A stretch of DNA of 59,468 nt from NCBI GenBank assembly GCA_964541455.1, contig CAZIPS010000005.1, positions 1-59,468 on the forward strand, in the 5' to 3' direction. This DNA is from an uncultured Candidatus Saccharibacteria bacterium. GTDB taxonomy: Bacteria; Patescibacteriota; Minisyncoccia; Phycocordibacterales; JAKFXT01. The notes under the pieces were generated by a model. That model searched no databases. It was not told where the DNA came from and saw only the letters and a program-made list of their open reading frames with translations. This document shows, in pieces, positions 2,638 through 59,468 of the stretch. Numbering within the stretch: position 1 is the stretch's first letter; each line of letters starts with the position of its first letter. A program made the position numbers and the translations under genes.

Positions 2638-2666
2638 TACTTTAATTATAGAGTAGAATTAGGGAT

Positions 2667-10110: not shown

Positions 10111-10111
10111 A

Positions 10112-40723: not shown

Positions 40724-40724
40724 A

Positions 40725-40760: not shown

Positions 40761-40779
40761 TATTTGTCTTTATTTAGAT

Positions 40780-41100: not shown

Positions 41101-41117
41101 AGGTCTCTTGTTGTCAA

Positions 41118-41145
41118 ATTATAGTGTTAAAACGATGAGTGACAA
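41118..41145 (-). promoter_or_regulatory. Sigma70-type promoter candidate for the KH gene
   Basis: On the minus strand: TTGTCA, 16-nt spacer, TATAAT. Confidence 0.45.
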
Positions 41146-41189
41146 TCTTTAGCTCATCATTAGTCTTGATTATATAAAAATTACCCCAA

Positions 41190-41234
41190 AAAACAATCCC
41201 TCCCTCGCCAAGGGCGAGGGAGGGATTGTTTTTA
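41190..41234 (-). terminator. Strong intrinsic terminator after rpsP
   Basis: Stem of 16 bp or more, CAATCCCTCCCTCGCC / GGCGAGGGAGGGATTG, with a T-run on the minus strand. Confidence 0.8.
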
Positions 41235-41238
41235 GTTA

Positions 41239-41643
41239 TTATGCAGCTACCTCTGCTTCAGTGGGTGCCTCTGCTTCTACTTGAGGAGCTTCGACCACCG
41301 GAGTCTCAACAGGGGCCTCTGCTACTGGAGTTTCTGCTTTAGGTGCCTCTTCTTTCACTTCCTTTACTGGAGGGGTCTTCTTTGGAAGTACATTTTTCTT
41401 TTTACCAGTAATAACTTTTTCTGACACCAAGAGATTATGCACCGTGTCTGTTGCTTGAGCTCCAACACTCATCCAGTACTTCACACGTTCAGCATTTATA
41501 ACTGGCTTGTTAAAACGTGGGTCATAGTTGCCAAGCACCTCAAGCACCTTACCACTTTTTGTAGAATTAAGACGGTCAGTCAAAACCACACGAAAATTAG
41601 ATTCGTGTTTGCGGCCAACGCGCTGTAGTCGTATTCGTAACAT
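41239..41643 (-). CDS. rpsP: 30S ribosomal protein S16 with a K/E/P/A-rich C-terminal extension
   Basis: Start placed at the ATG at 41643 (MLRIRLQRVGRKHESNFRVV, the canonical S16 N-terminus). The 71 upstream codons of the listed ORF are not protein-like. Confidence 0.9.
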   Translation of the reverse strand: MLRIRLQRVGRKHESNFRVVLTDRLNSTKSGKVLEVLGNYDPRFNKPVINAERVKYWMSVGAQATDTVHNLLVSEKVITGKKKNVLPKKTPPVKEVKEEAPKAETPVAEAPVETPVVEAPQVEAEAPTEAEVAA

Positions 41644-41908
41644 AAGGGGAACCTTACCAAAAAAGAAGCCTAAGGTCAAATAGCCCGGACATAAATATAC
41701 CCCATAACACACCCTACGCCCAAGGTAGCCCCTCCCTAAGGAAGCATTAAAAAAAAAGGGGCGACCTTCCCAGGTTACCCCTAATCGCTCATAGAACCAT
41801 GTTCGGGCTAAACGAATAGGAACGAGCCGCAAGACCTGTATCATAGCGCAAAACAAAAATTTGTATAGTCAATCCCCGTTTTCCATGCTACTCTGGTGCT
41901 CTATATAT

Positions 41909-43852: not shown

Positions 43853-43872
43853 AGCGCCGCCCTTCTGGCGGC
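43842..43872 (-). terminator. Intrinsic terminator of high-GC cassette G (also abuts the rnr stop)
   Basis: GCCGCC / GGCGGC stem with a 5-nt loop, followed on the minus strand by GCTTTATTTTAC. Confidence 0.6.
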
Positions 43873-43877
43873 AGCTC

Positions 43878-44114
43878 CTATCGTCCGTGGGTGAACACCC
43901 CTTTTTCCTTGTAGCGATTTGCGTAAAGAAGCGCTTCGTCAAGCGGAAGCGGCGGCATGAACTCGACCTTTGTTCGGTCACCGCCACAGGTCGAATACCG
44001 CGAAACCTCCTCGCAATGGGTTGGCGAGACCATACTGATAGTCACTGACATGGTTGTGCCGCCCGCCTGTTCCTTGCCGAAAAGCTGCCCCAAAAGGGCC
44101 GTGATAAGTTCCAT
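43878..44114 (-). CDS. Hypothetical small protein (78 aa), high-GC cassette G
   Basis: AAGGAGAAG lies directly upstream of the ATG. TTGACA at 44182-44177 (minus strand). Own terminator. No domain recognised. Confidence 0.55.
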   Translation of the reverse strand: MELITALLGQLFGKEQAGGTTMSVTISMVSPTHCEEVSRYSTCGGDRTKVEFMPPLPLDEALLYANRYKEKGVFTHGR

Positions 44115-44185
44115 CGCCTTCTCCTTCTTGGAAGTTACGAAAATTCCGAAGTTAAGGATACCCTTTGGAACCTTGTTGTCAATTT

Positions 44186-46273
44186 CTATACCGCCGACAC
44201 CTCAAGTCGCTCGATATCCCATATCTCTCTTCCAATCTTATCTTCAATGTCTTTAAGATCACGACGCAACTCCTCTTCACGACTTCGCTCTTCCTGTGTA
44301 GGATCCTTACTTACGCGATCGCGCTTAAGCATTTCAATTTCACGTTCGATATCACGGCGAAGCACGGCAAAACCCCTTCGTAATGCCTCTTGGGCTTCGT
44401 TTACTTCTTTGAGTACTACCTTATGCTTACGCTTAGCCCGCACGGCATGATAGAGCATGAGGATAAGGAGTCCTACCACAACGAGCACCAGTATAGAGAC
44501 TACTGCAAGATAGAGGGACTCATAACTCACACGTGTCACCCCAAAGACAATCGCCGCACGAGCCACATTCATCTCTATTTGTGAGGATGGAGGACTGCTT
44601 ATGTCTCCAAGCCTTGCCTGAGTCCAAAGAATATATTTTCCAGGAGAGAGGAACGTATTATGTCTATAGAACCATTCCCCTTTCTTATCTGATGTCACCT
44701 CGTAGCTAGTTGTCTCACCTGTTGAAATATTTTGAGAGAAGATAGTGACTGCAGTGTCTTTATTTTCTGTTTTCCCGCCAATATAGAAGATTTCATTATT
44801 TGAAACATTTTTAGAAATAGTGGTGACATAGGGAGGGGCAAGTTCTACTGTCCCCGCCTTATCATCTGCCGCATACACCCTACCTCCTGCCACAAGCGAA
44901 AGTAGAGAAAGACCAACAAAAGCAAAAGCGATTGCTACTGTACCGTACTTACTCTTATAACGTTTAAGCTCCTCAAGTTGTGAACGAATCTGGTCAGGTA
45001 GTTCTCTTGTTGCGCGTTTTGCTTCAAGTGTGTCGTGTTTGCGCTTGTAATGCATAACGCCATACACAAGAAGTGCAATAAGAAGAAGGAGGAGGATAAT
45101 AGAAAGTGCCCAAGGAATCGCGAAGCTTCCAATAATCAGCCCATCTTCACTCGTAAACCCGACAACCGCATCTGAAATATTAAGTCTTTTGATAACCTCT
45201 TGATAATTCCCCGCCTTATCATAGGCACGCACAAATACATCATATACCCCAGGATCAAGCCTTTGCGAAACATAGGGACTTTCTACTTCTATAAAAAGTG
45301 ACTGATTCCCCTTCTCTTCACTTGTATTTGGTTTAAGATTTACAATTTTTAACTCATAATGATCAACACCTGAGCTTTCATCAGTAGTACTAAATTTAAT
45401 AATCGGCTCACGAACGCTTGTACGTGCTGCTGGTAAAATAGCGATTGGAAAAAGCGCTGGGGGGGTCGTGTCTATATTAATCGCAAAATGTGTAACGCCC
45501 CCCCATGCACCATCACGGAATGATTTAATATGAAAATAATACCTTCCATCGGGAATATTTTTTTGAATAATTTGAGATCGTTTCCCTTCTCCCACATCAT
45601 CAGGTAGCGCCACAGGATCCGTATTAAAAATATAACTAAAATTTTGTACAAGTTCACTTGTCCCCCAACTCAAAATAGCAGAGGAGTTTGTATACCATAA
45701 ACTTTGATTCGGATGTGTCTCTGAAACAACAATTGGCCCAGCTGGTGGAGGAAGAGTCAGTAAATAAAGGGCGGTATCCTGATGACTCAAATCATTTGTC
45801 CCCTGCCCATCATTTAAAAGTATTTTCGAATTATCACTTGAAAAGCGAACAATCGCATTCCCAACTGACTTAACACGAAAAGTAAGTGTTGCAACGAGTG
45901 CGTTATTCACGTTTATACCCTTAGGGATTCCGCCCTGTAAACGCACTTCGCCTGTGGCATTATTAAACTTTGGCTGGCTTGTCCAAACAGAAATAATTGA
46001 AAGATTAGTCTTTGGGGAAACCAACTGAATCCTATCGGGCGGAAAGCGTAAATCAACATCAAGTGCATTCACCGACTTTCCCTCTGTATCAAGCAATATT
46101 TGTACATCAAAAGTGCTTCCTACTGTAAAAGCCCCTGAAGTTGGGCTCAGGATAAGTGCTCCCGCACTGACAGAGGATGCAAAACTAAAAAACAAAAATA
46201 ACCCTCCTAAAAGAGAAAAAATAAACTGACGAAATGTACTATGAGCTTTGGGGTGATTATTAGTAGGAATCAT
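44186..46273 (-). CDS. Cohesin-domain surface protein with three TM segments and a charged coiled-coil tail
   Basis: Signal/anchor sequence. Cohesin-like module LILSPTSGAFTVGSTFDVQILLDTEGKSVNALDVDLRFPPDRIQLVS...VATLTFRVKSVGNAIVRF. Ig-like modules with an SGVDHYEL motif. TM helices. ATG at 46273 is preferred over GTG at 46315. Confidence 0.65.
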   Translation of the reverse strand: MIPTNNHPKAHSTFRQFIFSLLGGLFLFFSFASSVSAGALILSPTSGAFTVGSTFDVQILLDTEGKSVNALDVDLRFPPDRIQLVSPKTNLSIISVWTSQPKFNNATGEVRLQGGIPKGINVNNALVATLTFRVKSVGNAIVRFSSDNSKILLNDGQGTNDLSHQDTALYLLTLPPPAGPIVVSETHPNQSLWYTNSSAILSWGTSELVQNFSYIFNTDPVALPDDVGEGKRSQIIQKNIPDGRYYFHIKSFRDGAWGGVTHFAINIDTTPPALFPIAILPAARTSVREPIIKFSTTDESSGVDHYELKIVNLKPNTSEEKGNQSLFIEVESPYVSQRLDPGVYDVFVRAYDKAGNYQEVIKRLNISDAVVGFTSEDGLIIGSFAIPWALSIILLLLLIALLVYGVMHYKRKHDTLEAKRATRELPDQIRSQLEELKRYKSKYGTVAIAFAFVGLSLLSLVAGGRVYAADDKAGTVELAPPYVTTISKNVSNNEIFYIGGKTENKDTAVTIFSQNISTGETTSYEVTSDKKGEWFYRHNTFLSPGKYILWTQARLGDISSPPSSQIEMNVARAAIVFGVTRVSYESLYLAVVSILVLVVVGLLILMLYHAVRAKRKHKVVLKEVNEAQEALRRGFAVLRRDIEREIEMLKRDRVSKDPTQEERSREEELRRDLKDIEDKIGREIWDIERLEVSAV

Positions 46274-47201
46274 GACTTGTCCCCTGCCTTCGGTGATAGA
46301 AAAAGAACAATACACCGAATACGGATACTATCAGTATACCTAATGTAAGAAGATAACTGAACCAACTATTTACTTTCTGTGGTGATAAGTCAGCACGCGT
46401 TTCCAATTCCTTTATACTGCTATTACCATTTCGATCAACCACCTTAAGATAAACATACGACTTTAATGTCTGATCCATAAGCAAGGCAGGGCTTGTAACT
46501 ACCTTCCAAGAAAAAGCTTCATTTTCTTTACCAGAAGGTATTTTTGTCGAGGTTTCAAGTAGTTCGAAATGATCCACCCCACTCTCAGCATCCTTTGCTG
46601 CAAAAACTATAAAATAAGCCCCCTCAAACATCGCCTCATTTTGTGCGATATCTAGTCGCGTGATTTGAGGGGGAACATTGTCGTTTGGAAGAATTGCTTC
46701 ACTTGTAACTCCATCCTTTTTTGCCAAAATTGGTAACTCAACTGGGGCAAGAATTACAGGAGTTGCTTTACCATCATTTTTATAAGCTATCCCAGTTCCC
46801 GCAACATGGGTTCCCCCCTCTTTGTGTGCGGTGAACACTACCGTCACCACCTCCCCTCCAGTAACTACCCCACGTGGAATAATTCCAGAAAAGAGAAGCG
46901 ACCCTTTTTGGGCTTTAGTATCTTTAAGATCAACACTTTTTACCCATGTTGAAATAATTGAAGACCCATCAAGTACTGAAGTGGGGGTCAAATATTCAGG
47001 ATCAAAGGTTAATGAGCCTTCAAGCGCATTAACAGCAGTTCCATCTTGAACAAGCATAAGGCGCACAGGGACCTTCATACCTACAGAAACTTCCAAGGTA
47101 CTTTTTTCAAACTGAAGCGAAGTAGCAAAAAGCAAATGCGGAAAAAACACTACAAAAACTAAAAAGAGTGCGGGTACTTTTTTAAAAAATAGTTTAATCA
47201 T
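46260..47201 (-). CDS. Cohesin-domain surface protein with a C-terminal TM anchor (paralogue of 44186-46273)
   Basis: Signal peptide. Cohesin-like SLQFEKSTLEVSVGMKVPVRLMLVQDGTAVNALEGSLTFDPEYLTPTS...VVTVVFTAHKEGGTHV. SGVDHFEL module. C-terminal TM helix. Confidence 0.65.
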   Translation of the reverse strand: MIKLFFKKVPALFLVFVVFFPHLLFATSLQFEKSTLEVSVGMKVPVRLMLVQDGTAVNALEGSLTFDPEYLTPTSVLDGSSIISTWVKSVDLKDTKAQKGSLLFSGIIPRGVVTGGEVVTVVFTAHKEGGTHVAGTGIAYKNDGKATPVILAPVELPILAKKDGVTSEAILPNDNVPPQITRLDIAQNEAMFEGAYFIVFAAKDAESGVDHFELLETSTKIPSGKENEAFSWKVVTSPALLMDQTLKSYVYLKVVDRNGNSSIKELETRADLSPQKVNSWFSYLLTLGILIVSVFGVLFFFYHRRQGTSHDSY

Positions 47202-47203
47202 AC

Positions 47204-48001
47204 TTACTTAAGCGGCTTTTCATGCCAGTAATACGCCATAATACTAAAATCATAGATATCAACCTTTCCATCTCGACTTAAATCAACACGCAATGGTGGA
47301 TCACGTTTATCAAACCAATAATACATGATGGAGAAGTCAACAATATCAACATACCCATCACAGTTTAAATCTGCCATCTCCTTGCATTCCAAAAGAGGTT
47401 TGGTAAGTGGAGGAATATATGAAATTGGTGGACCACCCCCACCCCCACTACTACTTGGAGGAGTCGTTGTAGTACTTCCAAGGGGGGTCGCCGTTATCTC
47501 ACTTGAAGTTGCAATATAATTACCAAAAAAATCTTCTGTACGTACTACAAAATAATAAGGTGTCCCATTTGTAAGACTTCCCATCGTCGTACTTAACACA
47601 TTCCCCACACTACTGTAAGTATAGGGCCCCCCCGCAGTAAGCGATTTGCCAATGGTGTATCCCCCAACGGTCCAACCCAAAAAACCAGAACTCCCTGTCC
47701 AAGAAAGTGCTACCGTTGTATCACCAGGAGTACCAGAAAGCGTCCCTGTCGTGACAAGAGGAAAATACAAAAACCCAGCCTTCACTTCGAAATTCGTAGC
47801 GGCGCTCTCTCCACTTGAAGGCTGCGCTAGAACTCCTTGAAGCTGATAATTTGCAGAAGAGGCGTATGATGCAGGGGCAATTACTGGATCTTGCACTTGA
47901 AAACTTGAGCCCGTATAGTCGTCAGCTAAAACGGCTAGTGGTCCCCCCACTCCCGTAAGGAGCAATAAAATAACTATAGCCTTAAGGGTCTTGGTGAACA
48001 T
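47204..48001 (-). CDS. Secreted FN3-domain protein with a C-terminal dockerin-type duplicated Ca-binding repeat
   Basis: Signal peptide. FN3-like region (ALSWTGSS...TPYYFVVRTEDFFGN). Gly/Ser/Pro linker. DLNCDGYVDIVDFSIM...DLSRDGKVDIYDFSIM are two dockerin EF-hand-like segments. Confidence 0.7.
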   Translation of the reverse strand: MFTKTLKAIVILLLLTGVGGPLAVLADDYTGSSFQVQDPVIAPASYASSANYQLQGVLAQPSSGESAATNFEVKAGFLYFPLVTTGTLSGTPGDTTVALSWTGSSGFLGWTVGGYTIGKSLTAGGPYTYSSVGNVLSTTMGSLTNGTPYYFVVRTEDFFGNYIATSSEITATPLGSTTTTPPSSSGGGGGPPISYIPPLTKPLLECKEMADLNCDGYVDIVDFSIMYYWFDKRDPPLRVDLSRDGKVDIYDFSIMAYYWHEKPLK

Positions 48002-48012
48002 TTAGGACTTTA

Positions 48013-48489
48013 TTAATTACTGGCAGGTGCATTGTTGACATTAAATGGAGAAACCTCGAGTATTTTATCTTGCTTCACACTATAGAGTATTGCCTTACCA
48101 CTCTTACTGTAAAGAAGCACTTTATCCCCTTTTTGGGCCTTAGCGAAAAAAGCCTGGTCTTTAAGCTTATCCGGATCTGAAACCGTTGCCAATGTTGGTT
48201 GTTCATCATCTGGAAGCACCATAAGTCGACTTACCTGTTTGACCGCTGCCTGTAGTTCCTTAAGTGCCTGCGCTTGTGGGTCCTTATTAGCATTAGCTTT
48301 TTGATAAAAGTAAAACGAAGAACCACCTGCCAAAAAGAGTAACACTACAAGCACCGTCGTCATTGGTGATTTTTTAAACAAATAACGCAAAGTTACTTTT
48401 ATTCTCCCCCAAAAACCAATGGTTTTCTCTTGAGGTGTAGTTACAAAAGAGGTAGACGTTTTTTGAATTTCAGGTTGTAGTGGAGGCAT
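48013..48489 (-). CDS. Hypothetical single-TM protein
   Basis: 158-aa ORF with one TM helix (TTVLVVLLFLAGGSSFYFY), lying between the giant gene and the dockerin gene. Confidence 0.5.
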   Translation of the reverse strand: MPPLQPEIQKTSTSFVTTPQEKTIGFWGRIKVTLRYLFKKSPMTTVLVVLLFLAGGSSFYFYQKANANKDPQAQALKELQAAVKQVSRLMVLPDDEQPTLATVSDPDKLKDQAFFAKAQKGDKVLLYSKSGKAILYSVKQDKILEVSPFNVNNAPASN

Positions 48490-48555
48490 AGGTGTATCTA
48501 TTACTAATAACTATAGGCGTAGTATAGCAAAGAGTAGCTATCGAATCTAATAAGA

Positions 48556-51500
48556 TTATTGTGCGGTACTTTCTTGTTGAACGGGGGGATTTCCTTCAGT
48601 AGTTTGAGGGGGTGTTGGGGTCACTCCTCCATCCACAATTGAAGGACTTGGTGGAGCTGTCGCTTGAGAAGACCCACTGTCTACACTCCCTGTGATTACT
48701 GTCGCTGAAGACGACGCCTCATTAGGGGGACTTGAAGTACTGCTTACTGGTGCTGAGGGAGTAGTAGTTGAAACATCGGCTGCAGGCGGCGCTGGAGCGG
48801 TATCATCCTCTTCGTATGCATTATTTCGCTCGGTGAACACTTTTGCATCTTTAACTGCAAGCGCTACCCAGCTAAAGCGGATGTCCTCTGGGGCCTTCGC
48901 ATTAATTCGAATAGTAAACCCATGTACACTCTTATTTGAAATAATGTAGCGCACATCACCCTTGAGAATTGCATCTCCCGTACTTGTTGCGTCGGTATCT
49001 TCAAGGCTTATGGAAGCATTTACAATCGGCGTATCAGTGTAATCCCTATCAAAGGCGACATAGACACTCTTGCTGCCCTTAGGAATAACTGCGAACCCTC
49101 CAGTATCTTTCGTGAAATATGGACGTCCAATAAAGAGTGTGTCGCTCATAAATGCAGTGGTAGTCCCTATACTTGATATGGTGTCAACACTAAGTCCCCC
49201 ATTAAAGACAGTGCTTCCTCCAACAGAAAGACCGCTACTTAATGTGAACGTCTCAATAGTTGTCGTTGCGCTACTTGTACCAACAGTAGTTGCCACATCG
49301 GTATGACTAAATGCATTAAGGAGATTTGCGAGAAGTGCGGTATGAGCAGGAGTTAGATTTCGTGCAGTAACGTCCCCCCCAAAGGCGATATTACCGAGCG
49401 CGTCAATAGTGAGCGCAGGTATATCATCACCATTTCCACTAAGTGTAGCAATCGCTGAAGTAGTACCTACACCCAAAGTATTCTCTGTTGAAGTCCCTGT
49501 GGTTGAGGCGATAGCAAGGAGAGTACTTGATGAAGTAGCAAAAGTTTTGTTGATTAAACTAATTTCAAGCTTACCATCAGCCCCAACGCGCACTGTGTAA
49601 TTACCAAGAGTAAGACTGTTTGTTGCAAGGTTCTGAGTGGTAATATTCTTAGCCTTAAGAGTATCTACATCAAGCGTAAGACCAGTAATATGTCCGGCCT
49701 CAACGTTTTCGGCACTCAAAAGTCCTGTCACAATTTCTGGAGCGATAATTTGTGACACCGCGCTCACACGATCAGTGAAAAGCTCTGATTGTGCTGCAAC
49801 TCCTTTATTTCGAGAGTCACGTAACTCAGTTAAGAAAGCAAGTACTGCGTCAGCCTTACGGTTTTGTGTCACCATAAAAGTAGATGAGGTTGCCATAGTA
49901 AGTGGCGAAGCCTCACTGCTTGTAGCAATATCAAGCCCTGTTGAAGACTCGAGTGATGCGAGGGCTGCCTTTCGATCATTCCAATCAGCCATCACTGTAT
50001 CAACATTTGCACCATTGTAATCAATCAAGTTCACAAACATCATAATGGTGGTGCATTGACGTCCGGGAATGAAGAAATCACTTTGTGGACAATCAACGAG
50101 AGTTTTTGGATCAATCGTTTCAAGTGCCTTACCAATCACACGACCAGAAAGAGAAGCTTTCATCGCATACCCAGGGACTGAAGCGGCAGTTAGGAAATCT
50201 CCTGCACGAATCATGCCATTTTCAGTTGAAACCCTTACAGGAACACGTCCAACAAGTGCAACAGGGAATGAATTTTTGGTATAGGCACCAGTAACAAACC
50301 CAGGGTCAGTTGAAACGACTCCAAGTACATCTGGCTGATACTGATACTTTGTTCTAAGCACTCCATGGTTGTATTTTGGATCAAGTGACACCACTTCACC
50401 GTTTTCAAGGTTTTGATCAGAAGTATAACGTTCTGCCAAGTCAGCGCCCGATGTGTTAATCGTTGAGCCAGATGCACCGTATATGTCTCCCGAAGAGGAG
50501 ACGCGGAACACTGAGATACCGTCTGACTGAAGATCGATAAGGTTAGTGTCTTTGGTTACCGCAACTTCAGTTAATGTTGGGGTTACTAATGTACGCTGTG
50601 GGTACACTGGAGTAGGTCCATTACCCATCCACACATCTTCTTGTATACCTCCATAACTTGGGAAGGCGCGTTTCAAATGGAAAGTAACTTGGAGCCATGT
50701 CTCACCTGTTCCGGGGTTTATCTTTGCTCCCGGGCGCTCTAGTGTTCGAGTGGTAGCTGTGGCAAGACCAGTCATAGTAGCTGCCGTGCGGATTTCAGCA
50801 GAAACCGCATCAAAAGTTCCCCCCTTAGTCTTCCATGTGAGCACAGAAGCACTATCAAGATCAGGAATATTTATTTCTTCTGTCGTGTACTTACCATAGG
50901 ATGCCCAACCACCATCATACTCATAAACAGAGGTAGAAGAAGCAGTGGAAGAAGCTGCACCACCTAGGAGCACGAATTTACCATTATCAAGCTGGAAAGC
51001 TGTCGCACCAGGACCGATGTTGTTGTAGTTGTTAGTTACAGGAGATCCTGCGGTTGTAATACCAAGTCCTGTTGAAGGTGCAGTGTTCGTAGTTCTTGAA
51101 ACCCAAGCACCGATTGCGCCGTTCACTCCAGGACCAGCAAGGTTAGTAGTATACGCACCTTCATTTTCAAGATAATGCTGGTAACGTGCTGTTGAAGTCG
51201 CACCAGCCCATACAGCAGTCCACGTTCCATCTGGTCGTGGCATTACAACATTACTTTCAAAACGAAGGTTACTGCTTGGGATGGCGATAGTTGGACCGAC
51301 GATCGGCTTTGGGTCATTAGTGGCTGTCCAAAGAGTTGTAGTGTTACGAGCTGCACAGGCAACGGTCACGCTTGTTCCTGTTGGTTGGTTAGCCTGAACT
51401 TCGAGCCACGTACCATCACTTCGCTGGAAAACGATGGTTCCTGGACCACTCGCAACAGCTGAAACACCAGTTGCTGTACGGAAGGTCATTTGGAATGGAT

Positions 51501-54500
51501 CAAAATACATCATTGTAGTAACCGCAGTACAAGCTTCACTTGCAACACCTGGATGGACTAGATAAGTACCGTTTGGAAGTGGAAGCGCAAAGGAGCCAGA
51601 ACCAATAACAACTGCATTGGTGTTAGGACCTGCCATCATTGTTTCCGTAAATGGATCATATATTGAAGTAGTGGTAGTAAAGTTGCCATGGAGAATGAGT
51701 ACACGGCCGTTTGGAAGTGGTATAGCCATTGCGCCACGGCCTGAATTACCAGTAAGATTTGGTCCCGTACTAAAGGTATTTGCAACTGGATCAAAAATAA
51801 CTGTAGTTGAAGTGGCACCACTTCCTGCAGTGTTCACTGCATTTGCAAGAGTAATCAAGAACTTACCATCAGGACGCTTGAAAGCTAGTGCACCAATACC
51901 AATGTTCACATTGATTCCGTAGGCAGCTGGTACTGTTCCAAGGTTAGTAATACTTTTAGTATCAGGATCATACACTTGCGCATTCGGAGAAGAGGTTGCA
52001 CCTGCGATAATCACAAATTTGCCATCAGGACGCTTCATCACAATTGAAGATGAGGCAATACCTGTTAAGAGTGAAGTCGTTGTCGCAAAAGCGCCATCAA
52101 AGAGCTGTGTACCGCTCCCTGAGGTTGTATTTTGAGTTCTAAAGTACTCATTATTTGCATTTTGCTGCAAGTTAAGTGCCACTGTTCCATCTGTTCTGTT
52201 ATTCACATTAAGTGTTGCACCAGACGGTGAAGTTGAAGCATTTCCAAAAGTGAAAGTTGTGCGCTTATAGAGGTTATTGTTATTAACCGCCAAATATTGA
52301 AGCACGGGGTCAAGCACATTTCTTTGATATCGAGTAATACCAGACTTTCTCATCCCCCACTCTTGATCAAGGAAGTAAGGAAGTGCACGCTTCAAGGTCA
52401 CACGCACCTGTACACGGTTTTGTGTGGTAATCGTTGGATCAATAAGGTCCCCACTCTTTGCAATCGACTTATAAGATCCGCTACATGATCCTGTTCCAGT
52501 TTTGACTTCAAATGTTACTACCCCCTCACCACCTATATCCCACGTAAGTGTTGAATTAGGATTAAGACCAGTTGCAACCATACAATCGGTTTCATATTGC
52601 CCTGCCAAACTTCCAGTAGTTGAAGCACCTCCAACAATAAAGCCCATATCATAGAGATCCACAGCGGTTGAATTACCACCACGGGTGATGGCATAAGTAC
52701 CATCAGGACGAAGAAACGCGATAGATGTAGAGGCGAGCGCATTTGCAAGTGTTGGCCCCGTAGTAAATCCTGCTGCGTTTGTTGCATTCGCTGGGTCAAT
52801 GATAGTCGTTGCGGTTTGGCCAGAACTTCGGATCAAAAGATATGTTCCATCCTGGCGCCAGACTGATTGAGCACCATCACCCAAAGCTGTTGCCGGACCA
52901 ACAGAGAGGCTAGTAAATGTTCCTACTCCGGAGTTAGTAGTTGAAGCAGTAGTCGCTGGGTTATAGAGTGTCGAAGCATTAGCATCACCAGAAAGGATAA
53001 GGAATGTTCCATCACGAAGCTGTATTGAAAACGCACCGCTCTTTATTGTTGGGCCGTTCGTTGGAGTAATTGCACTACTGTTCGCTCCTGTTCCTGTTGT
53101 TCCATAGTTTTGAGAATAAAGGAATGCTGTAGTTGAGTTACCACCTGCAAAAATGAGGAAGGAGCCATCAGGACGACGAATGGCGTGCGCACCAGAGCGA
53201 ATAGTTGCAGGTGAAGTTGGTCCTGCCGCTGACGTTCGAAGCCCTGGATCATAAATTGCTGTACCAGTTGACCCTCCACAATACACAATATACTTACCAT
53301 CATCCCTTTGTACTGCAAATGTTCCATCGGCTGCGGTACATGAAAGGGTTGGTCCAGCAGTTACAGCAGTGTTTCCATATGGGTCATAAATAGATGTCTG
53401 CGTAGTTGAACCAGCATGTATCAAAAGATATCTTCCATCAGGTTGGCGGAGTGAAATCGCTCCACCCCCCACACCCTGTGCTCCAGTTGCTGCAGTATAA
53501 CTTCCCATATTACCGCTATTACCATTCCAAATAGACGCAGTGAAAGTACCACCACCATGAATAATCATGTATCCACCATCGTCGCGAAGAACAACATGGC
53601 TTCCTGAGTTTATAGCAACGGCAGTAGTTGTCGCTGCAGGACTTGAAGCAACACCGAGATTACTATTCATAATAGTTCCACGAGAAAGTATCACGTCACT
53701 ACCGCTTGTTGCAGTATTAGTAAATACTGCACCGGTGTAGTTAAAATCTGTAGTCTGACCAGTTGAAACAGTGCTCTTCACCACATCACTTGTTGCCCCT
53801 GTAATAGTAAGACCTCCGCCGTTTGCAAAGACTGCTTTATCAACCCCACCTGTCTGCAAGTGAAGGATATCTCCCGCCCCACGCTGATCAAGTACTGCTA
53901 CGGGGTTAGCTGAGGTAGAAGAGGCGCCAAAAGTTACCCAAGGAGTAGTTGATCCGACTCCCAAACGTTTGTTAGTGCTGTCCCAATTAAAATTCGTAGC
54001 ATCTCCACTAAAGTTTACCCCGTCATCAGTAAACTGTATTGCTTTAGCTGTCCCTCCTGGGGTCCCTCCTCCAGCTCCTGCGTCTGCACCACACTGAACA
54101 TTTCCATTGCTATCAGTCTCAAGAACAAATGTTCCATTACATCCTGTAAGCGTTGAGAGGGTCATACCCTGACTTGCCACGCGGATCCCGGTGAAGGTTG
54201 AAGTTCCGTTGGTTGTATTTAGCTGTGCAGCACTGATACCACCGTTAAAGGAGGAAGTAGCTTGTGAATTAATTAGAAGTGCGCCTGTTGTTGCGATAGT
54301 CATTAAGGTAGTAGTAGCATTTAGGGCATCACTACTAGTTCCAAAGTAGAAGTTGCCATTAGCGAAACGGATGATACCGTGTTTTGCATTCGTCCCCCCA
54401 TTTGGATCAGTAAGGGCCAACTGTGGAACAGTAGAAGAAGCAAGTTGAAGGAGCCAATTTGGAGTAGTAGTGCCGATACCAATTGCACCTGATGGCTTGA

Positions 54501-57500
54501 TAAGCATCTTAATTGAAGAAGAAGCGAGCCCACCTGTTGTAAAACGAATTTCTGCTAAAGAATTAGTGGTGGAAGCAGTACCAAGAAGGAGGGCCGTGTC
54601 TGAACTATAGAGATAAGTATCAAGTGGATTACCCGCGTTCTGCAGAGCTTGACTATATCCCGACCCATTAATACCTAGATTGCCATAATAGGTAGTTTCT
54701 GTACCAATGTTTGATGTAACTACAAGATCAGATGAAGCCGATGTTCCGCCATTTCTATTTTGCACATTTACCTGCATGTAGTTATCAATATTTCCTGTAA
54801 AGAGTCCGGCCGTCACCCCACTACTGCCAACCTCAGAAGTAAAGCGAGCAAGAGTTGGTGAAGTGGTACCTATACCAATATTACCCGTAGCGCTAATTGT
54901 TAAATATGTTGATGTTGATGTAAGCGCATCACTACTAGTTCCAAAATAGAAATTACCGTTCGCAAAACGGAGGATACCATGTTTAGCATTAGTCCCTCCT
55001 CTTGGATCAGTGAGAGTTAATTGTGGAGCAGTTGCAGAAGCAATCTGGAGCATCCATGCAGGAGTAGAAGTACCGATACCGACAGTCCCCGCTGAATCTA
55101 CATTAAACAAACTTGCATTATTTTGCCTAATATCAAAAATTTTAAACCCAGTTGTTGTAGCAATATTTGAATTAATTCTAAAGAAAGTACCTTGAGAACC
55201 CACCGTTGAACCAGAGGGTAAAGTAAATTGCGCTGCACTATAACCATCAGAAAGGCCATTCAGCGTATTCCAACTATATGATAAATCTGGGGAATCGCTT
55301 GTAGAAGAACCTACATTAAAATATCCACCTGTTTTATAGACTGAAAGTGCGAGTTTATTTACCCCCGAATTATCCCCAACTGACAATTGAGCAGCGGGGG
55401 TTGTTGAACCCACGCCAACGTCCCCACTACTTAATATCGTAAGTAATGTTGAGGTTGAGTTAAGGGCATCTACTGCCTTACCAAAATAGAAGTTCCCATT
55501 TGCAAAGCGGATGATCCCATGTTTAGTGTTCGTTCCTCCGCTCGGGTCCGTAAGAGCTAGCTGTGGGGCGGTACTAGAAGAAAGTTGAAGGAGCCAATTA
55601 GGAGTAGTGGTGCCTATCCCAACCGTAACTCCATACTGATTTCCCACACCCCCTAATACCATGGCATTTGATTTATTCACTATCGCTCCTGCACCAATAG
55701 CTGTTGAATAACTAAGGGTACCCAAACCAGCATCTGATTCAGCCCCTAGAAAAGTGTTGTAAATTCCAGTAGTAGTAGTAGTGCCCGCCCAAGTACCAAG
55801 TGCAGTTGAAGAAGCGCCTGTTGTTCCATAAAGTGCCCACCACCCTACTGCAACAGATGAAGAACCTGTTTGATTGTTACGCAATGCTTGATATCCAAGA
55901 GCAGTATTATACGAGCCTGTAGTATTTGAAATAAGAGACCATCCACCCAACACAGAGTTATAAGAACCACTTATATTGCTATTCATCGCTTGGAACCCAA
56001 GAACATTATTATATACACCCGTAATGTTATTAGCAGCCGCCCCATACCCTACTGCTACATTGTTTGTTCCAGTATTGTTAGCCGCCAGAGCATATGCACC
56101 AAACGCAGCATTTCCATCCGCACTATTTGATTGAAGCGCATTTAGACCAACTGCCGTATTTTCATTGCCCGTACTATTAGAATAGAGTGCACTATTTCCA
56201 ATTGCCACGTTATCAGCGCCTCCTGTATTGCTGTATTGCGCTAATTGACCAATCGCAATATTTCCGTTTCCATTTTTAGAAGATCGAATACCAAGTGCTG
56301 AATTACCAATAGCAATAGTATTTAGCCCTGTATTTAACTCCGCTCCTCCAGCTCCATTTCCTATTGCAATCTGCTTTGTAGCGTCATTGGCAATAGTTAA
56401 GAACGTACTTGTTGCATTAAGTGCATCACTACTTGTACCGATATAGAAGTTGCCGTTCGCAAATCTCAAGATACCATGTTTTGCATTCGTGCCTCCGTTA
56501 GGATCAGTGAGTGCTAACTGTGGTCCAGTTGAAGAAGCAATTTGGAGCATCCAGGCAGGGGTGGTGGTGCCGATACCGACAAGGGTGTTTACTCCCCCAT
56601 TTACGTAAATAGCATTTGGATTAAGGGCACTTGTAGTAGTGGCCCACTTTGAGTTAGGAGGGGCTCCTGCTCCACCTCCACTGGTATCATCTCCACAGAA
56701 AATATTGCCATTTGCATCAGTAGTGAGTTTCCCAGAGTTTGCGAAGCCTGCACAGTTAAGTGAGGCGACACGGATACCATTAGTGAATGTTGATGTAGCA
56801 CTTCCAGTGATGTTGAGTGCTGCAGCATTTATGCCTGCCGTGAAGGTACTGGTTGCAGCACTTCCTACAGTAAGTACTCCTGAAACGCTAAGTGCTCCAG
56901 TGGTGGTGGCATTGCCATTTGCAAAGAGATTACCTTCTACAGAGAAACGCGAAGTAGGAGTAGTGGTACCAATACCGAGGAAGCCATTTGAGGTGAGAGT
57001 GAGGGCAGAGATTGAAGAGGTGGCAAACGTTGAGTTACTTGAAGTAGCAACATAGAGGAATCCTCCTGCATTGCGGAATGACCAATGATTGTTAGCACCA
57101 CTGGTGTCTGAAAGGGTGAGTTGAGGAGCGGTTGAGGTTGAGAGTTGGAGCATCCAATTAGGTGTCGTGGTACCTAACCCCAAATACCCACCATATGTCA
57201 TACGTGACATTTCAACACCCAATAAACTGGTTGACCAGAAGAATGGATCGATATTAATTTTCCCAATACTACCGTTATTATTCGCCTCCATCACAAGACC
57301 AGGATTAATGTCATAGATTTTTGACATCTTGTTGACATTGGTCGAATTAATAAAGAGCGAGCCTTGTAAATATGAATCTCCGACAACCCCAAGCTTCACA
57401 CCTGTCGTACCTCCAGGGTTATAACTAGAGCCGGCAATTACTGTACTCACATTTGTCATACCAACACCAACATCACCACCATTATTAACAATAAATCTTG

Positions 57501-59468
57501 TTGCTGTTGAGGAGCCGACAACAAATGCAGGACCGGTAATCTGATTTGGATTTATTGAGAGCATACCCCATGGCGACGTTGTTCCAATACCGACACTATT
57601 TGTTGAACCGATAATAGAGAGAGCTGTTGAGGTTGAAGTTAACGCATCACTACTTGTCCCTATGTAGAAGTTTCCGTTAGCGAAACGAATGACCCCATGT
57701 TTAGCATCAGTGCCTCCGTTAGGATCGGTGAGGGCAAGTTGTGGGGCGGTTGAAGAAGCAAGTTGGAGGAGCCAGTTAGGGGTAGTAGTACCGAGGCCTG
57801 CCCTTCCAGAATTAAGAATGGTGAGTTTTGCAGAATCTGATGGACCAATCATCGTTGATGAGGCAGTGTTGTTGGTGATGTTTGAACCGAAGGCTGATGC
57901 TCCTTGTGCAGATGACCAGATGTTGTAACCAAGAGCAGTTGAGAAGAGTTGGGTAGCTGTTGATGAAGCACCAACGGCGGAGGATTGAATACCGGAAGCT
58001 GTAGTTGAAGCACCGAAGGCAGAGGAGTATTGACCAACTGCGCTATTTTGATAGCCGATAGCAGAAGCTCCTAGTGCTCCCGCATTATTTACAGCACCGA
58101 CTGCAGTAACATACTGAGTTGAACCACCTGCGGTGTTGCTATAGCCCACGGTCAAACTTCGAATAGAGTTAATAACGTTTGAATTACCAACAGCAGTAGC
58201 GTCATCGGCTGATGATACATTATTGTTACTACCGAAGGCATTCATGCGTGGGTTACCACCCGTACCACCAATAATATTATTGTTTCCATAAGAGAGGATA
58301 CCGAGGTCGGTAATTGCTGAATTTAATGTTCCCCCATTACCAACCATGAAGACTCCTTGACTTGGAGTGAAGCGGACAATACTTGAGGTTGCTGAGAGTG
58401 CGTCAGATGATGAGGCGATGTAGAAACTTCCGTTTGCGTAACGCAAGACCATGTGTTTAGCGTTAGTGCCTCCGTTAGGATCCGTAAGCGCAAGTTGTGG
58501 GGCGGTTGAAGAGGCAATTTGAAGTGACCAGTTAGGGGTAGTGGTGCCGACTCCTAAATAAGGATTAACGATAAGACCTCCTTTCGTGACAGCAGTGCCA
58601 CCATATGTGCCAACCGCTACACCAAGGTTTACAGAATCACCACTTAAATAAGAAGTGGCTACATTGTTACCAAAAGTGAAAGCGGTTGTCTGGTTAGTTG
58701 GTGTACCAAATACAATGGCCCCACTATCTTGTGCATATAAGACATTACTGGATCCTGAAGATCCACCCTCAAGAGAGAGAAGGATTGAGTTAGAGTTAGC
58801 TGTCGAGCTTACTCTAATAAACTTACTTGAACCATTGCCTGTTCCAGCAACAGTAAGATATCCATCTGGGGAAGCCGTGCCGATTCCAACCTTACCACCA
58901 AAATAAGCAGAGGTATTTGATGTCACTCCCACCGCCCCAGCAACACTCAGTGAAGCATTTGGACTCGTACTTCCAATACCTAATCTACCACTGGTATCTA
59001 AAGTTAATGCAGACATTGATGATGTGGCAAATGTAGATGGCGATGCGGTTGCTATGTAGAACAGTCCTCCTACTGATCGTTGAACCCAATGATTTGATGT
59101 AAGTGACCCGTCAGAAAGCGCAAGTTGTGGGGCGGTTGAGGAGGCAATCTGTACTAGCCAGTTAGGAGTGGTGGTACCAATACCGACATAGCCCTTACCA
59201 TAGAATTGGATTGATTCGTTACTAACTGTTGTAGTAGCAAAACCAACAGAACCTGAACCTGATCCTGATCCACAAGCTGCCCCTGTTCCTGTAATGAGTC
59301 CTGTGGCTGAAGCTTGAAGACAAGTAGTACCATTACCCCCTAAGTTAGATACAAAGAGTTGAGAAGTTGACGCAGTACCAGTTACGGTAAGTGCAGAAGT
59401 GGTGGCATTTGTCGCAAAGAGATTAGTGAAGTTACCGGTCGTTGCAAAGAATGAGGTACTCGTACTGT
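48556..59468 (-). CDS. Giant (>3,630 aa, N-terminus outside the window) tail-fibre/adhesin-like surface protein
   Basis: Single open frame. My manual translation of 59017-59190 upstream of the first ATG (59016) found no stop and continues the same repeat (…GIGTTTPNWLVQIASSTAPQLALSD…); 59191-59468 was not translated, so openness to the window edge is inferred. It contains 8 conserved modules, YadA-head-like NxAxG repeats, two Kelch-like propellers and an S/T/P-rich C-terminus. Confidence 0.85.
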   Translation of the reverse strand, partial: STSTSFFATTGNFTNLFATNATTSALTVTGTASTSQLFVSNLGGNGTTCLQASATGLITGTGAACGSGSGSGSVGFATTTVSNESIQFYGKGYVGIGTTTPNWLVQIASSTAPQLALSDGSLTSNHWVQRSVGGLFYIATASPSTFATSSMSALTLDTSGRLGIGSTSPNASLSVAGAVGVTSNTSAYFGGKVGIGTASPDGYLTVAGTGNGSSKFIRVSSTANSNSILLSLEGGSSGSSNVLYAQDSGAIVFGTPTNQTTAFTFGNNVATSYLSGDSVNLGVAVGTYGGTAVTKGGLIVNPYLGVGTTTPNWSLQIASSTAPQLALTDPNGGTNAKHMVLRYANGSFYIASSSDALSATSSIVRFTPSQGVFMVGNGGTLNSAITDLGILSYGNNNIIGGTGGNPRMNAFGSNNNVSSADDATAVGNSNVINSIRSLTVGYSNTAGGSTQYVTAVGAVNNAGALGASAIGYQNSAVGQYSSAFGASTTASGIQSSAVGASSTATQLFSTALGYNIWSSAQGASAFGSNITNNTASSTMIGPSDSAKLTILNSGRAGLGTTTPNWLLQLASSTAPQLALTDPNGGTDAKHGVIRFANGNFYIGTSSDALTSTSTALSIIGSTNSVGIGTTSPWGMLSINPNQITGPAFVVGSSTATRFIVNNGGDVGVGMTNVSTVIAGSSYNPGGTTGVKLGVVGDSYLQGSLFINSTNVNKMSKIYDINPGLVMEANNNGSIGKINIDPFFWSTSLLGVEMSRMTYGGYLGLGTTTPNWMLQLSTSTAPQLTLSDTSGANNHWSFRNAGGFLYVATSSNSTFATSSISALTLTSNGFLGIGTTTPTSRFSVEGNLFANGNATTTGALSVSGVLTVGSAATSTFTAGINAAALNITGSATSTFTNGIRVASLNCAGFANSGKLTTDANGNIFCGDDTSGGGAGAPPNSKWATTTSALNPNAIYVNGGVNTLVGIGTTTPAWMLQIASSTGPQLALTDPNGGTNAKHGILRFANGNFYIGTSSDALNATSTFLTIANDATKQIAIGNGAGGAELNTGLNTIAIGNSALGIRSSKNGNGNIAIGQLAQYSNTGGADNVAIGNSALYSNSTGNENTAVGLNALQSNSADGNAAFGAYALAANNTGTNNVAVGYGAAANNITGVYNNVLGFQAMNSNISGSYNSVLGGWSLISNTTGSYNTALGYQALRNNQTGSSSVAVGWWALYGTTGASSTALGTWAGTTTTTGIYNTFLGAESDAGLGTLSYSTAIGAGAIVNKSNAMVLGGVGNQYGVTVGIGTTTPNWLLQLSSSTAPQLALTDPSGGTNTKHGIIRFANGNFYFGKAVDALNSTSTLLTILSSGDVGVGSTTPAAQLSVGDNSGVNKLALSVYKTGGYFNVGSSTSDSPDLSYSWNTLNGLSDGYSAAQFTLPSGSTVGSQGTFFRINSNIATTTGFKIFDIRQNNASLFNVDSAGTVGIGTSTPAWMLQIASATAPQLTLTDPRGGTNAKHGILRFANGNFYFGTSSDALTSTSTYLTISATGNIGIGTTSPTLARFTSEVGSSGVTAGLFTGNIDNYMQVNVQNRNGGTSASSDLVVTSNIGTETTYYGNLGINGSGYSQALQNAGNPLDTYLYSSDTALLLGTASTTNSLAEIRFTTGGLASSSIKMLIKPSGAIGIGTTTPNWLLQLASSTVPQLALTDPNGGTNAKHGIIRFANGNFYFGTSSDALNATTTLMTIATTGALLINSQATSSFNGGISAAQLNTTNGTSTFTGIRVASQGMTLSTLTGCNGTFVLETDSNGNVQCGADAGAGGGTPGGTAKAIQFTDDGVNFSGDATNFNWDSTNKRLGVGSTTPWVTFGASSTSANPVAVLDQRGAGDILHLQTGGVDKAVFANGGGLTITGATSDVVKSTVSTGQTTDFNYTGAVFTNTATSGSDVILSRGTIMNSNLGVASSPAATTTAVAINSGSHVVLRDDGGYMIIHGGGTFTASIWNGNSGNMGSYTAATGAQGVGGGAISLRQPDGRYLLIHAGSTTQTSIYDPYGNTAVTAGPTLSCTAADGTFAVQRDDGKYIVYCGGSTGTAIYDPGLRTSAAGPTSPATIRSGAHAIRRPDGSFLIFAGGNSTTAFLYSQNYGTTGTGANSSAITPTNGPTIKSGAFSIQLRDGTFLILSGDANASTLYNPATTASTTNSGVGTFTSLSVGPATALGDGAQSVWRQDGTYLLIRSSGQTATTIIDPANATNAAGFTTGPTLANALASTSIAFLRPDGTYAITRGGNSTAVDLYDMGFIVGGASTTGSLAGQYETDCMVATGLNPNSTLTWDIGGEGVVTFEVKTGTGSCSGSYKSIAKSGDLIDPTITTQNRVQVRVTLKRALPYFLDQEWGMRKSGITRYQRNVLDPVLQYLAVNNNNLYKRTTFTFGNASTSPSGATLNVNNRTDGTVALNLQQNANNEYFRTQNTTSGSGTQLFDGAFATTTSLLTGIASSSIVMKRPDGKFVIIAGATSSPNAQVYDPDTKSITNLGTVPAAYGINVNIGIGALAFKRPDGKFLITLANAVNTAGSGATSTTVIFDPVANTFSTGPNLTGNSGRGAMAIPLPNGRVLILHGNFTTTTSIYDPFTETMMAGPNTNAVVIGSGSFALPLPNGTYLVHPGVASEACTAVTTMMYFDPFQMTFRTATGVSAVASGPGTIVFQRSDGTWLEVQANQPTGTSVTVACAARNTTTLWTATNDPKPIVGPTIAIPSSNLRFESNVVMPRPDGTWTAVWAGATSTARYQHYLENEGAYTTNLAGPGVNGAIGAWVSRTTNTAPSTGLGITTAGSPVTNNYNNIGPGATAFQLDNGKFVLLGGAASSTASSTSVYEYDGGWASYGKYTTEEINIPDLDSASVLTWKTKGGTFDAVSAEIRTAATMTGLATATTRTLERPGAKINPGTGETWLQVTFHLKRAFPSYGGIQEDVWMGNGPTPVYPQRTLVTPTLTEVAVTKDTNLIDLQSDGISVFRVSSSGDIYGASGSTINTSGADLAERYTSDQNLENGEVVSLDPKYNHGVLRTKYQYQPDVLGVVSTDPGFVTGAYTKNSFPVALVGRVPVRVSTENGMIRAGDFLTAASVPGYAMKASLSGRVIGKALETIDPKTLVDCPQSDFFIPGRQCTTIMMFVNLIDYNGANVDTVMADWNDRKAALASLESSTGLDIATSSEASPLTMATSSTFMVTQNRKADAVLAFLTELRDSRNKGVAAQSELFTDRVSAVSQIIAPEIVTGLLSAENVEAGHITGLTLDVDTLKAKNITTQNLATNSLTLGNYTVRVGADGKLEISLINKTFATSSSTLLAIASTTGTSTENTLGVGTTSAIATLSGNGDDIPALTIDALGNIAFGGDVTARNLTPAHTALLANLLNAFSHTDVATTVGTSSATTTIETFTLSSGLSVGGSTVFNGGLSVDTISSIGTTTAFMSDTLFIGRPYFTKDTGGFAVIPKGSKSVYVAFDRDYTDTPIVNASISLEDTDATSTGDAILKGDVRYIISNKSVHGFTIRINAKAPEDIRFSWVALAVKDAKVFTERNNAYEEDDTAPAPPAADVSTTTPSAPVSSTSSPPNEASSSATVITGSVDSGSSQATAPPSPSIVDGGVTPTPPQTTEGNPPVQQESTAQ
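54330..59200 (-). repeat. Eight dispersed in-frame copies of an approximately 150-bp coding module at roughly 550-950 bp spacing
   Basis: The consensus peptide G(I/L)GTTTP(N/A)W(L/M)LQ(L/I)ASSTAPQLALTDPNGGTNAKHG(I/V)(I/L)RFANGNFY(I/F)GTSSDAL recurs near 59120, 58480, 57730, 57120, 56510, 55550, 55010 and 54400. The copies are also recognisable at nucleotide level. Confidence 0.85.

Follow-up and report, generated by a model that had tools for sequence, protein, structure and literature searches.

We describe a cluster of five genes at positions 44186-59468 of contig CAZIPS010000005.1 (assembly GCA_964541455.1) from an uncultured Candidatus Saccharibacteria bacterium; the window analyzed here is this entire contig of 59,468 nt. 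The genes, named G, D, C, B and A in the order in which they are read, code for a giant fiber protein, a small membrane protein, a secreted adaptor and two membrane anchors. We suggest that their products form a surface-fiber system of the Patescibacteria cell, in which the adaptor C would be plugged by a dockerin into the cohesins of A and B and would hold the fiber protein G, with D as an auxiliary factor. To this model in full we assign a probability of about 0.55. Judged from their sequences, all five products are exported or inserted into the membrane. The genes all lie in the same direction on the minus strand, to which the coordinates of the cluster refer, and are separated by 66, 11 and 2 nt and joined by one overlap of 14 nt, exactly as the initial annotation of this stretch had it. 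They take up 25.7% of the window, where about 25% had been claimed.

The adaptor C (47204-48001, 265 residues) consists of a signal peptide (residues 1-27), a conserved N-module (residues 28-81, 47759-47920), an FN3 domain (residues 82-175, 47477-47758) followed by a Gly-rich linker, and a C-terminal dockerin (residues 203-265, 47207-47395). By its sequence family and its structural model C ends in a true dockerin. The Pfam model Dockerin_1 (PF00404) scores 22.7 bits on C at a cut-off of 22.9 and is present in about half of the listed relatives of C. A profile of the dockerin family matches 15 chains in the PDB, all of them dockerins (best 2y3n_B, 8.1e-10). The Ca-binding loop-helix segments (DxNxDGxxxxxD) are arranged in tandem ('DLNCDGYVDIVD' and 'DLSRDGKVDIYD'), both loops are canonical, and the loop residues D, N, D and D are invariant in 25 relatives. 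Furthermore, a 'DFSI(M)xYW' motif is almost invariant in both dockerin helices of the C family, its 'DFSI' part across classes within the candidate phyla radiation (CPR). In the AlphaFold2 (AF2) model of C the two dockerin helices and the FN3 domain reach a predicted local distance difference test score (pLDDT) of about 90 and the N-module one of about 32. A Foldseek search with this model returned FN3 matches only and the small dockerin did not surface. Thus, of the two domains that had been assigned to C initially, the FN3 domain is confirmed by structure and the dockerin by the family profile. Most relatives of C are longer, about 440 residues, and carry two additional Ig-like modules. A conserved pair of Cys residues (206 and 214) flanks the first Ca loop ('C...ADLNCDG'), which suggests a disulfide clasp.

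The proposed partners of this dockerin are the paralogous proteins A and B (8e-07). B (46260-47201, 313 residues) has a signal peptide, a cohesin (residues 25-170, 46692-47129), an Ig-like module and a C-terminal transmembrane (TM) helix at residues ~279-301 (46299-46367). A (44186-46273) has 695 residues counted from an ATG; the longest open reading frame (ORF) given by the ORF tool begins at a GTG at 46315. Its signal peptide is followed by a cohesin (residues 35-190, 45704-46171) and two Ig-like modules. Then come an insert of about 90 residues (residues ~377-466, 44876-45145), a Big_13-like module (residues 504-550, 44624-44764), a TM helix (residues ~581-614, 44432-44533) and a cytoplasmic tail (44189-44431), a charged coiled coil which is conserved in 52 homologues. 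Single-sequence searches of the PDB with A and B gave nothing useful and profiles were required. The isolated module of B reaches 24.8 bits with the Pfam model Cohesin (PF00963, cut-off 24.1), full-length B 22.5 bits. A has no match to the Pfam model and is recognized by our cohesin family hidden Markov model at 5.3e-41. Of the N-terminal modules of the A/B family 37 out of 100 match Pfam Cohesin (best 9.5e-11), and no other family matches consistently. The top PDB matches of the family profile, 5m2o, 5aoz and 5m2s, are cohesins of Ruminococcus flavefaciens scaffoldins. The cohesin-like reading of both N-terminal modules, made at the outset from the letters alone, has therefore held up.

The initial description of two paralogous anchors needs one correction. 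The paralogy stands, and the architecture of A has to be amended by the insert, which runs from a TM helix through a loop rich in Lys and Arg to another TM segment that resembles a signal peptide. A typical homologue of A has about 600 residues and is made up of the cohesin, two Ig-like modules, the Big_13-like module, the TM helix and the conserved charged coiled-coil tail. The insert is missing from most relatives and is present only in those of five loci (L005, L017, L020, L069 and L079); it has the look of a scar left where two genes were fused. In some relatives A is split.

A scan with one genome per species found a relative of C in at least 531 genomes, and 80 loci kept from these were used for the counts of gene order and domains. 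As a rule these 80 loci have the five genes on one strand in the order G-D-C-B-A, so that the gene order, which had been put forward as a check, does recur. With our own profiles we counted exactly one dockerin ORF in every locus, and two cohesin ORFs in 55 loci, three in 19 and four in two; the 59-kb window holds one dockerin and two cohesins in total. All but two of the cohesin ORFs (177/179) contain a single module. The named relatives are almost all Patescibacteria/CPR and belong mostly to Paceibacteria-type groups. In 2.9 million viral contigs the C family is essentially absent, with five weak matches that cover FN3 only.

That a secreted subunit is plugged onto membrane anchors had been proposed from the window itself, and relatives with other anchors lend this idea comparative support. 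An exhaustive search for the N-module returned 170 representative clusters, and the N-module is always found directly behind the signal peptide. Among the best 150 N-module proteins 101 carry a C-terminal dockerin; the remaining ones, where full-length, mostly end in a TM helix. One protein, P0254, is by our alignments a natural Rosetta-stone fusion: residues 12-174 of C (50% identity, 5e-52) are joined directly to residues 408-688 of A (35% identity, 8e-41). It has neither dockerin nor cohesin and keeps the N-module, the FN3 domain, the Big_13-like module, the TM helix and the coiled-coil tail; its gene could be located on no contig. On the 52-kb contig L095, a complete G homologue of 962 residues and a small gene of 175 residues precede a TM-anchored C variant. 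The genes downstream are unrelated (a peptidase, NUDIX, DnaG and RpoD), and neither a cohesin nor a dockerin is encoded within 8 kb. Contig L096 repeats the upstream part of L095 and ends soon after the variant. In the case of P0241 a large gene, a Beta-lactamase2 gene and a 132-residue gene precede the variant, an unrelated peptidase follows it, and no cohesin or dockerin genes are nearby. The upstream gene is confirmed as G for P0316 and is assigned for P0241 from gene sizes and the Beta-lactamase2 match only. TM-anchored variants with a downstream flank on record thus number two, both without cohesin genes nearby. On contig L093, which is cut just downstream, D is retained directly upstream of a TM-anchored variant. 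Two further proteins with multiple N-module matches, P0244 (16-fold) and P0301 (6-fold), turned out to be look-alikes with Ser/Thr-rich repeats and hold no real copies.

Because of the fusion P0254 and of the TM-anchored variants without cohesin genes, it appears that a covalent membrane anchor and the dockerin with its cohesin anchors can stand in for each other, and among our data this comparative result is the best backing for the plug-onto-anchor idea. What stays constant in these loci, the core of the system, is G, usually D, and the protein made of N-module and FN3. The adjacency of G and C is kept when the anchor type changes, which argues for a coupling of G and C. We consider that the dockerin of C probably pairs with the cohesins of A and B.

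The giant gene G extends from 48556 to beyond 59468. Since the window is the entire contig, the 5′ end of G is missing; 3,636 codons are present and the frame is free of stops from 59466 down to the stop codon at 48556-48558. This agrees with the initial estimate of more than 3,630 codons open to the window edge. Homologues range in length from 911 to more than 3,600 residues. No TM segment is predicted in G. G has a fiber region (53887-59199) with 15 'G[IVL]G[TS]xxP' motifs of the 'GIGTTTP' type and seven copies of a module of about 200 residues ('PNWLLQLASSTAPQLALTD'); the DNA copies of the repeat modules are 60-80% identical to each other. Embedded in it are YadA-head-like repeats (residues ~400-545, 57832-58269), on which Pfam YadA_head scores 31.9 bits as a segment (cut-off 25) and 22.8 bits with whole-length G, and a second such stretch (residues ~1030-1262, 55681-56379), which we read by eye. 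Two propeller-like regions follow, with 11 blade-like motifs in two groups. The first (residues ~1950-2290, 52597-53619) has six 'R(P/Q)DGxFLI' blade motifs at a spacing of about 48 residues; it has no match in Pfam and is a reading from the motif only. The second is of the Kelch type (residues ~2470-2870, 50857-52059) with five blade motifs, where one blade accounts for the Kelch_3 score of 24.2 bits (cut-off 22) and Kelch_6 scores 24.4 bits.

Toward the C-terminus we recognize two modules, M1 and M2, at which the AF2 model of the C-terminal region has a pLDDT of about 90. M1 (residues ~2990-3155, 50002-50499) resembles the autochaperone of the phi29 gp12 pre-neck appendage (Peptidase_G2 / IMC-like). 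In a profile search of the PDB it matched 6qz9 at 1e-3 and 3gqh at 4e-3. The Pfam model PF11962 reaches 17.8 bits in the window (cut-off 25) and matches 11 of 39 relatives at E≤0.1 (best 2.9e-5). A Foldseek search of BFVD with the model of the M1 region gave 42 matches at E≤1e-3, the best (1.3e-12) to a 'Preneck appendage protein', and tail-fiber proteins are among them. The 'GADLAERY' of M1 is aligned with 'SDFAEYFE' of phi29 gp12, and the released C-terminal fragment that was crystallized (3gqh) starts at that Asp. In the cleavage motif D-x-A-E-x-Y each residue is conserved in 36-37 of 39 sequences (D in 37, E in 36). This points to a putative self-cleavage site before Asp3009 (codon 50440-50442). 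A helical segment follows M1 (residues ~3155-3225, 49792-50004), with AF2 helices at model residues 216-237 and 260-281, the second of which corresponds to residues ~3199-3220.

M2 (residues ~3385-3560, 48787-49314) is an H-type-lectin-like knob that is kept in all relatives. Pfam H_lectin (PF09458) scores 17.9 bits in the window (cut-off 24) and matches 22 of 36 relatives at E≤0.1 (best 1.6e-5). Foldseek matches to HPA, SLL-2, discoidin II and the tips of pyocin fibers and tailspikes are marginal (E 4e-3 to 1e-1), and a sequence search of the PDB with M2 was without a match. The protein ends in a low-complexity tail rich in Pro, Thr, Ser and Glu (48559-48786) which contains no TM helix and no sorting motif; a tail of this kind, 50-150 residues long, is found on every G homologue. 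The C-terminal ~640 residues are the only part of G that is conserved across all relatives, and the body varies. In the G homologues with a readable N-terminus (L035, L056, L061, L069 and L095), this consists of a signal peptide and a 'YQGRL' domain, which is conserved. Therefore G should be exported, with both ends conserved and a variable middle. The modules that had been noticed in G without searches (tail-fiber-like, adhesin-head-like and two propellers) are thereby supported by the YadA_head and Kelch_3 scores and by the phi29-type module.

It had been cautioned that G would be a pseudogene if it were broken by frameshifts. Positions 40092-56286 of the window recur without gaps and at 99.99-100% identity in four independent assemblies from other samples (L001-L004); therefore G is no frameshifted pseudogene over residues ~1061-3636. 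This is the range of the independent confirmation, and bases 56287-59468, that is the first ~1,060 codons, are known from this contig alone. The contig ends of L001-L003 map to 55,970-56,286, between diverged repeat copies in the fiber region, and two contigs of relatives (L090 and L091) also terminate within their G genes. From these contig ends it follows that such giant genes are systematically truncated in short-read metagenomes.

D (48013-48489, 158 residues) is bitopic, with a basic N-terminus, one TM helix at residues ~41-62, as had been seen initially, and a strongly conserved ectodomain of about 90 residues. It is present in 49 loci in one to three copies, nearly always immediately upstream of C, and also ahead of TM-anchored C variants. 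A gene for a serine hydrolase of the Beta-lactamase2 type (PF13354) separates G from D in the closest relative and in 19 loci. The window encodes a Beta-lactamase2-type protein of 351 residues at 6340-7395 (minus strand), which is 48% identical (3e-109) to L090:1305-2312 of the closest relative; this gene, the same one or a paralogue, is 40 kb away from the cluster. Between C and B three loci carry a small GIY-YIG-type ORF (L080:11338-11664, L074:11313-11660 and L082:7432-7722), and eight other loci have an ORF of this family at a different place. These insertions point to a mobile element with the operon as its target.

The N-module of C links the cluster to the Pam pili of Ca. Mycosynbacter amalyticus, which were described in a preprint of June 2026 (Troman et al., bioRxiv 10.64898/2026.03.03.709456). 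In these pili Ig-like pilins are linked by donor-strand exchange, PapD-like chaperones are membrane-anchored and PamT is the tip subunit; PamR, an FnIII protein, is proposed to tether the pilus with a strand at its N-terminus and with a TM helix, and a tail-fiber-like gene is co-localized with the pam operon (10.64898/2026.03.03.709456). The preprint does not mention cohesins or dockerins (10.64898/2026.03.03.709456). The NCBIfam model CPR_pilus_PamT (NF058579) matches residues 6-77 of C at profile positions 4-77 of 241 (E 8e-5, 22.1 bits). It matches nine of 25 relatives of C (best 4.4e-8) and TM-anchored variants as well. Moreover, in protein P0303 the N-module is combined with a Pam pilin C-domain. 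NCBIfam models gave no Pam pilin match with the five window proteins or with ten relatives of A and B. Nor did jackhmmer, started from a Pam_pilin_C-like domain and of limited sensitivity, detect one in the window or up to 10 kb from C in 90 loci. Likewise, no PamC/PamD- or PapD-like chaperone was matched in the window proteins or the A/B relatives, again at limited sensitivity. Because neither a Pam pilin domain nor a chaperone-like match was found, the locus is, as far as these searches reach, not a pam operon; what it has in common with Pam is one module and the overall logic. The N-module is predicted to be disordered in isolation, which fits a strand-donating or strand-completing element, and we infer that it acts as one.

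The likeness to the Pam system goes beyond this module. Both are specific to CPR bacteria and Sec-exported without a trans-envelope machine, both use membrane-anchored accessory proteins with C-terminal helices and both have a tail-fiber-like gene nearby. PamR is an FnIII tether that acts by an N-terminal strand, and the N-module of C is homologous to the start of PamT. In contrast to Pam, our searches of this locus showed neither a PamA/B/E pilin domain nor a PapD-like chaperone, the anchoring would be by a dockerin-cohesin plug, and the relatives are mostly of the Paceibacteria type, whereas Pam pilins are reported mainly in Saccharimonadia and Microgenomatia. A and B share with PapD/FimC-like chaperones two beta-rich domains and a C-terminal helix, yet they match cohesin and no Pam or PapD model; we set them beside these chaperones by layout only.

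Anchoring by cohesin and dockerin at the cell surface is known from cellulosomal bacteria: ScaE of R. flavefaciens holds the adhesin CttA, Clostridium thermocellum has anchoring scaffoldins, and non-cellulosomal pairs exist. Our cluster is similar in that it combines a secreted protein with a duplicated Ca-binding dockerin and a single cohesin on a cell-bound protein, and in the logic of an adhesive component that is plugged onto the cell; it is such structures, too, that our profiles match. It differs in several respects. TM helices take the place of SLH domains or sortase signals as anchors; enzymes and a multi-cohesin scaffoldin are absent, and for one dockerin there are two to four anchors with a single cohesin each. 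The host is a Patescibacterium, and a giant phage-like fiber and a Pam-type N-module are coupled to the pair. In addition, the dockerin has the 'DFSI(M)xYW' motif in both helices and the conserved Cys pair. With phi29 gp12 and other tail fibers or tailspikes that end in an intramolecular chaperone G shares M1, aligned at the cleavage motif and matched in fold, a modular body and a lectin-like knob reminiscent of fiber tips. Unlike gp12, G is cellular, Sec-exported and encoded in a housekeeping neighborhood; about 500 further conserved residues follow M1, and the variable part is the middle between two conserved ends. The YadA-head repeats above the Pfam cut-off and the long modular fiber recall the YadA-family trimeric autotransporters. 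These, however, have a C-terminal beta-barrel anchor, of the YadA type of which Pfam finds no match in G, whose C-terminus is the lectin-like domain and the low-complexity tail. CPR cells probably have no outer membrane. For both reasons G is not a member of the YadA family. One further dockerin-domain protein, SEML1_0315 of Southlakia epibionticum (Cell 2023), was considered as well; it is an essential, stand-alone, Ig-rich protein of 927 residues with unrelated neighbors and belongs to a different system.

Each module of the cluster belongs to a known kind, and automatic annotation has named dockerin proteins in CPR. In the literature on cohesins and dockerins, tail fibers or surface proteins in CPR, Patescibacteria or Parcubacteria we found no description of the operon or of cohesin-dockerin anchoring in CPR. 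The initial remark that no function had been described for such a module thus stands for the operon. It needs qualification in so far as the Pam preprint shares one module and notes a co-localized tail-fiber-like protein (10.64898/2026.03.03.709456).

We suggest that the system works as follows. A and B would be held in the cytoplasmic membrane by their C-terminal helices with the cohesins facing outward on Ig-like stalks. The secreted C would insert its Ca-binding dockerin into these cohesins, as the comparative data suggest, and thereby tether its FN3 domain and N-module to the cell. The N-module would probably become ordered by adding strands to a partner, similar to the donor strands of the CPR Pam pili. 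This partner is most likely G, which is encoded two genes upstream; it is the weakest step of the model. G itself would be a trimer, probably folded by its phi29-gp12-type autochaperone, and in view of the conserved motif it may cut itself before Asp3009. The body of G with the fiber modules, the YadA-like heads and the two propellers, variable between species, could then extend away from the cell and attach to a host cell or to a surface. D might be a membrane-bound factor for assembly or holding, which is a guess. Adhesion as the function of the system and the contact between G and C are what we infer.

Several points weigh against this model. By inspection of motifs, topology and tail, G has no dockerin, no TM helix and no sorting motif, and a phi29-like cleavage at M1 would detach the conserved C-terminal ~630 residues from the fiber. 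The Pfam scores of the window's own cohesin and dockerin lie at the cut-offs. The similarity to PamT spans about 75 positions, signal peptide included, at 22 bits where the cut-off is 240. The contexts without cohesins number only three, one of which is known without DNA sequence, and the 175-residue gene on L095 does not match the D profile. Finally, D has no recognizable fold, with no match in Pfam, NCBIfam or the PDB, a profile of 46 sequences included.

Among other explanations the closest one is that C, A, B and D are the membrane base of a donor-strand pilus of the Pam type whose pilins are encoded elsewhere, with C as a terminator or anchor like PamR or as a subunit like PamT, and with G as a separate neighboring fiber or a tip adhesin and not the direct partner of C. 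The N-module matches of nine out of 25 relatives to the PamT N-terminus, its occurrence at the head of a Pam pilin C-domain protein, the build of PamR from an N-terminal strand, FnIII and a TM anchor, and the tail-fiber-like gene beside pam operons all speak for it. Yet the searches described above detected neither a Pam pilin C-domain nor a PamC/PamD-like protein in the window, in relatives of A and B or up to 10 kb from C in 90 loci, within their limited sensitivity; Pam pilins occur mainly in other classes, and the tight adjacency of G, D and C holds across anchor types. We consider this explanation unlikely. Less probable still is a general envelope scaffold without adhesin function, such as an S-layer-like coat or a wall-remodeling complex. 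The very wide conservation of the operon and the conserved cytoplasmic tail of A would suit it, as would the Beta-lactamase2-type gene that separates G from D in 19 loci and the closest relative and the resemblance of the Pro/Thr-rich G tails to wall-spanning linkers. A scaffold of this sort is difficult to reconcile, however, with the hypervariable length of G and with its adhesin-type heads, propellers and lectin-like knob. Moreover, G is not a lattice-forming unit, and a Pfam scan of the cluster proteins found no SLH or other wall-binding domain.

Cohesins and dockerins call to mind a cellulosome-like enzyme complex for the breakdown of polysaccharides, and some relatives have been automatically named cellobiohydrolase or dockerin proteins. 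Such a complex is very improbable here: there is one dockerin protein per locus and one in the whole window, the cohesin ORFs are nearly all single-module so that there is no scaffoldin, and the five proteins have no Pfam match to a glycoside hydrolase or a carbohydrate-binding domain. The phage-like M1 and the fiber motifs of G might also be taken for a prophage or tailocin remnant, a tail-fiber gene that lies by chance beside surface genes. This we regard as hardly tenable, given the housekeeping neighbors (RNase R, S16, KhpA, TrmD, rpoBC), the synteny with the closest relative, the native base composition, the near absence of the C family from viral contigs and the lack of a capsid, tail or integrase gene nearby.

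The surroundings of the cluster are those of a bacterial chromosome. The flanking genes (RNase R, S16, KhpA, TrmD, rpoB/C, dnaG and rpoD) are housekeeping genes whose synteny is common to the closest relative, and the GC content of the cluster, 0.42-0.46, is the same as in the remaining window; therefore the locus is part of the cellular chromosome. Downstream of A an ORF of 78 codons (43878-44114, minus strand) has relatives only in contigs of the same species and is not counted into the system. It is followed by a terminator-like hairpin (43855-43873, minus strand) with a stem of seven pairs, six of them G-C, and then a T-rich run. The hairpin, a match to the consensus only, may mark the end of the transcription unit. 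Between trmD and rpoB there is an ORF of 349 residues without a Pfam family (38895-39944, minus strand). A further ORF of 165 residues (9637-10134, minus strand) begins like a type IV pilin ('GFTLIELLVVLSIIGLL'), so that the organism has genes for surface filament subunits of the type IV pilin or pseudopilin type as well. Two more secreted proteins have no assigned function (15976-17427 and 8084-8980, both plus strand), the first with repeats rich in Ser and Thr and of Ig-like appearance. At positions 1-53 of the plus strand the contig start truncates a tRNA gene, of which the 3′ part is present (Rfam, 33.7 bits).

Beyond the window we propose, as a tentative and possible extension, that Patescibacteria possess a lineage-wide plug-in fiber system. 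It would consist of a phage-derived, self-processing trimer with an exchangeable body, an adaptor with a donor-strand-like N-module shared with Pam, and a cohesin-dockerin plug that is interchangeable with a TM helix. If so, the fiber gene would be the main determinant of the host or surface to which each episymbiont attaches, and through the cohesin-dockerin joint the cell could put on, exchange or release its fibers with no trans-envelope machine involved. The operon itself would be a clear example from nature of cohesins and dockerins that serve surface display and not polysaccharide breakdown, and the fusions and TM-anchored variants show what the pair replaces. The giant gene breaks short-read assemblies, so that its true size and diversity are under-reported.

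Most Patescibacteria are uncultured and are thought to live attached to other microbes, and attachment molecules, type IV pili and Pam pili, are known only for a few cultivated Saccharibacteria. The operon, found in several hundred species-level genomes at the least, most of them from other CPR classes, is a candidate for how long surface fibers are mounted in these bacteria. The N-module ties it to the Pam pili, and the hypervariable giant fiber could explain host specificity.

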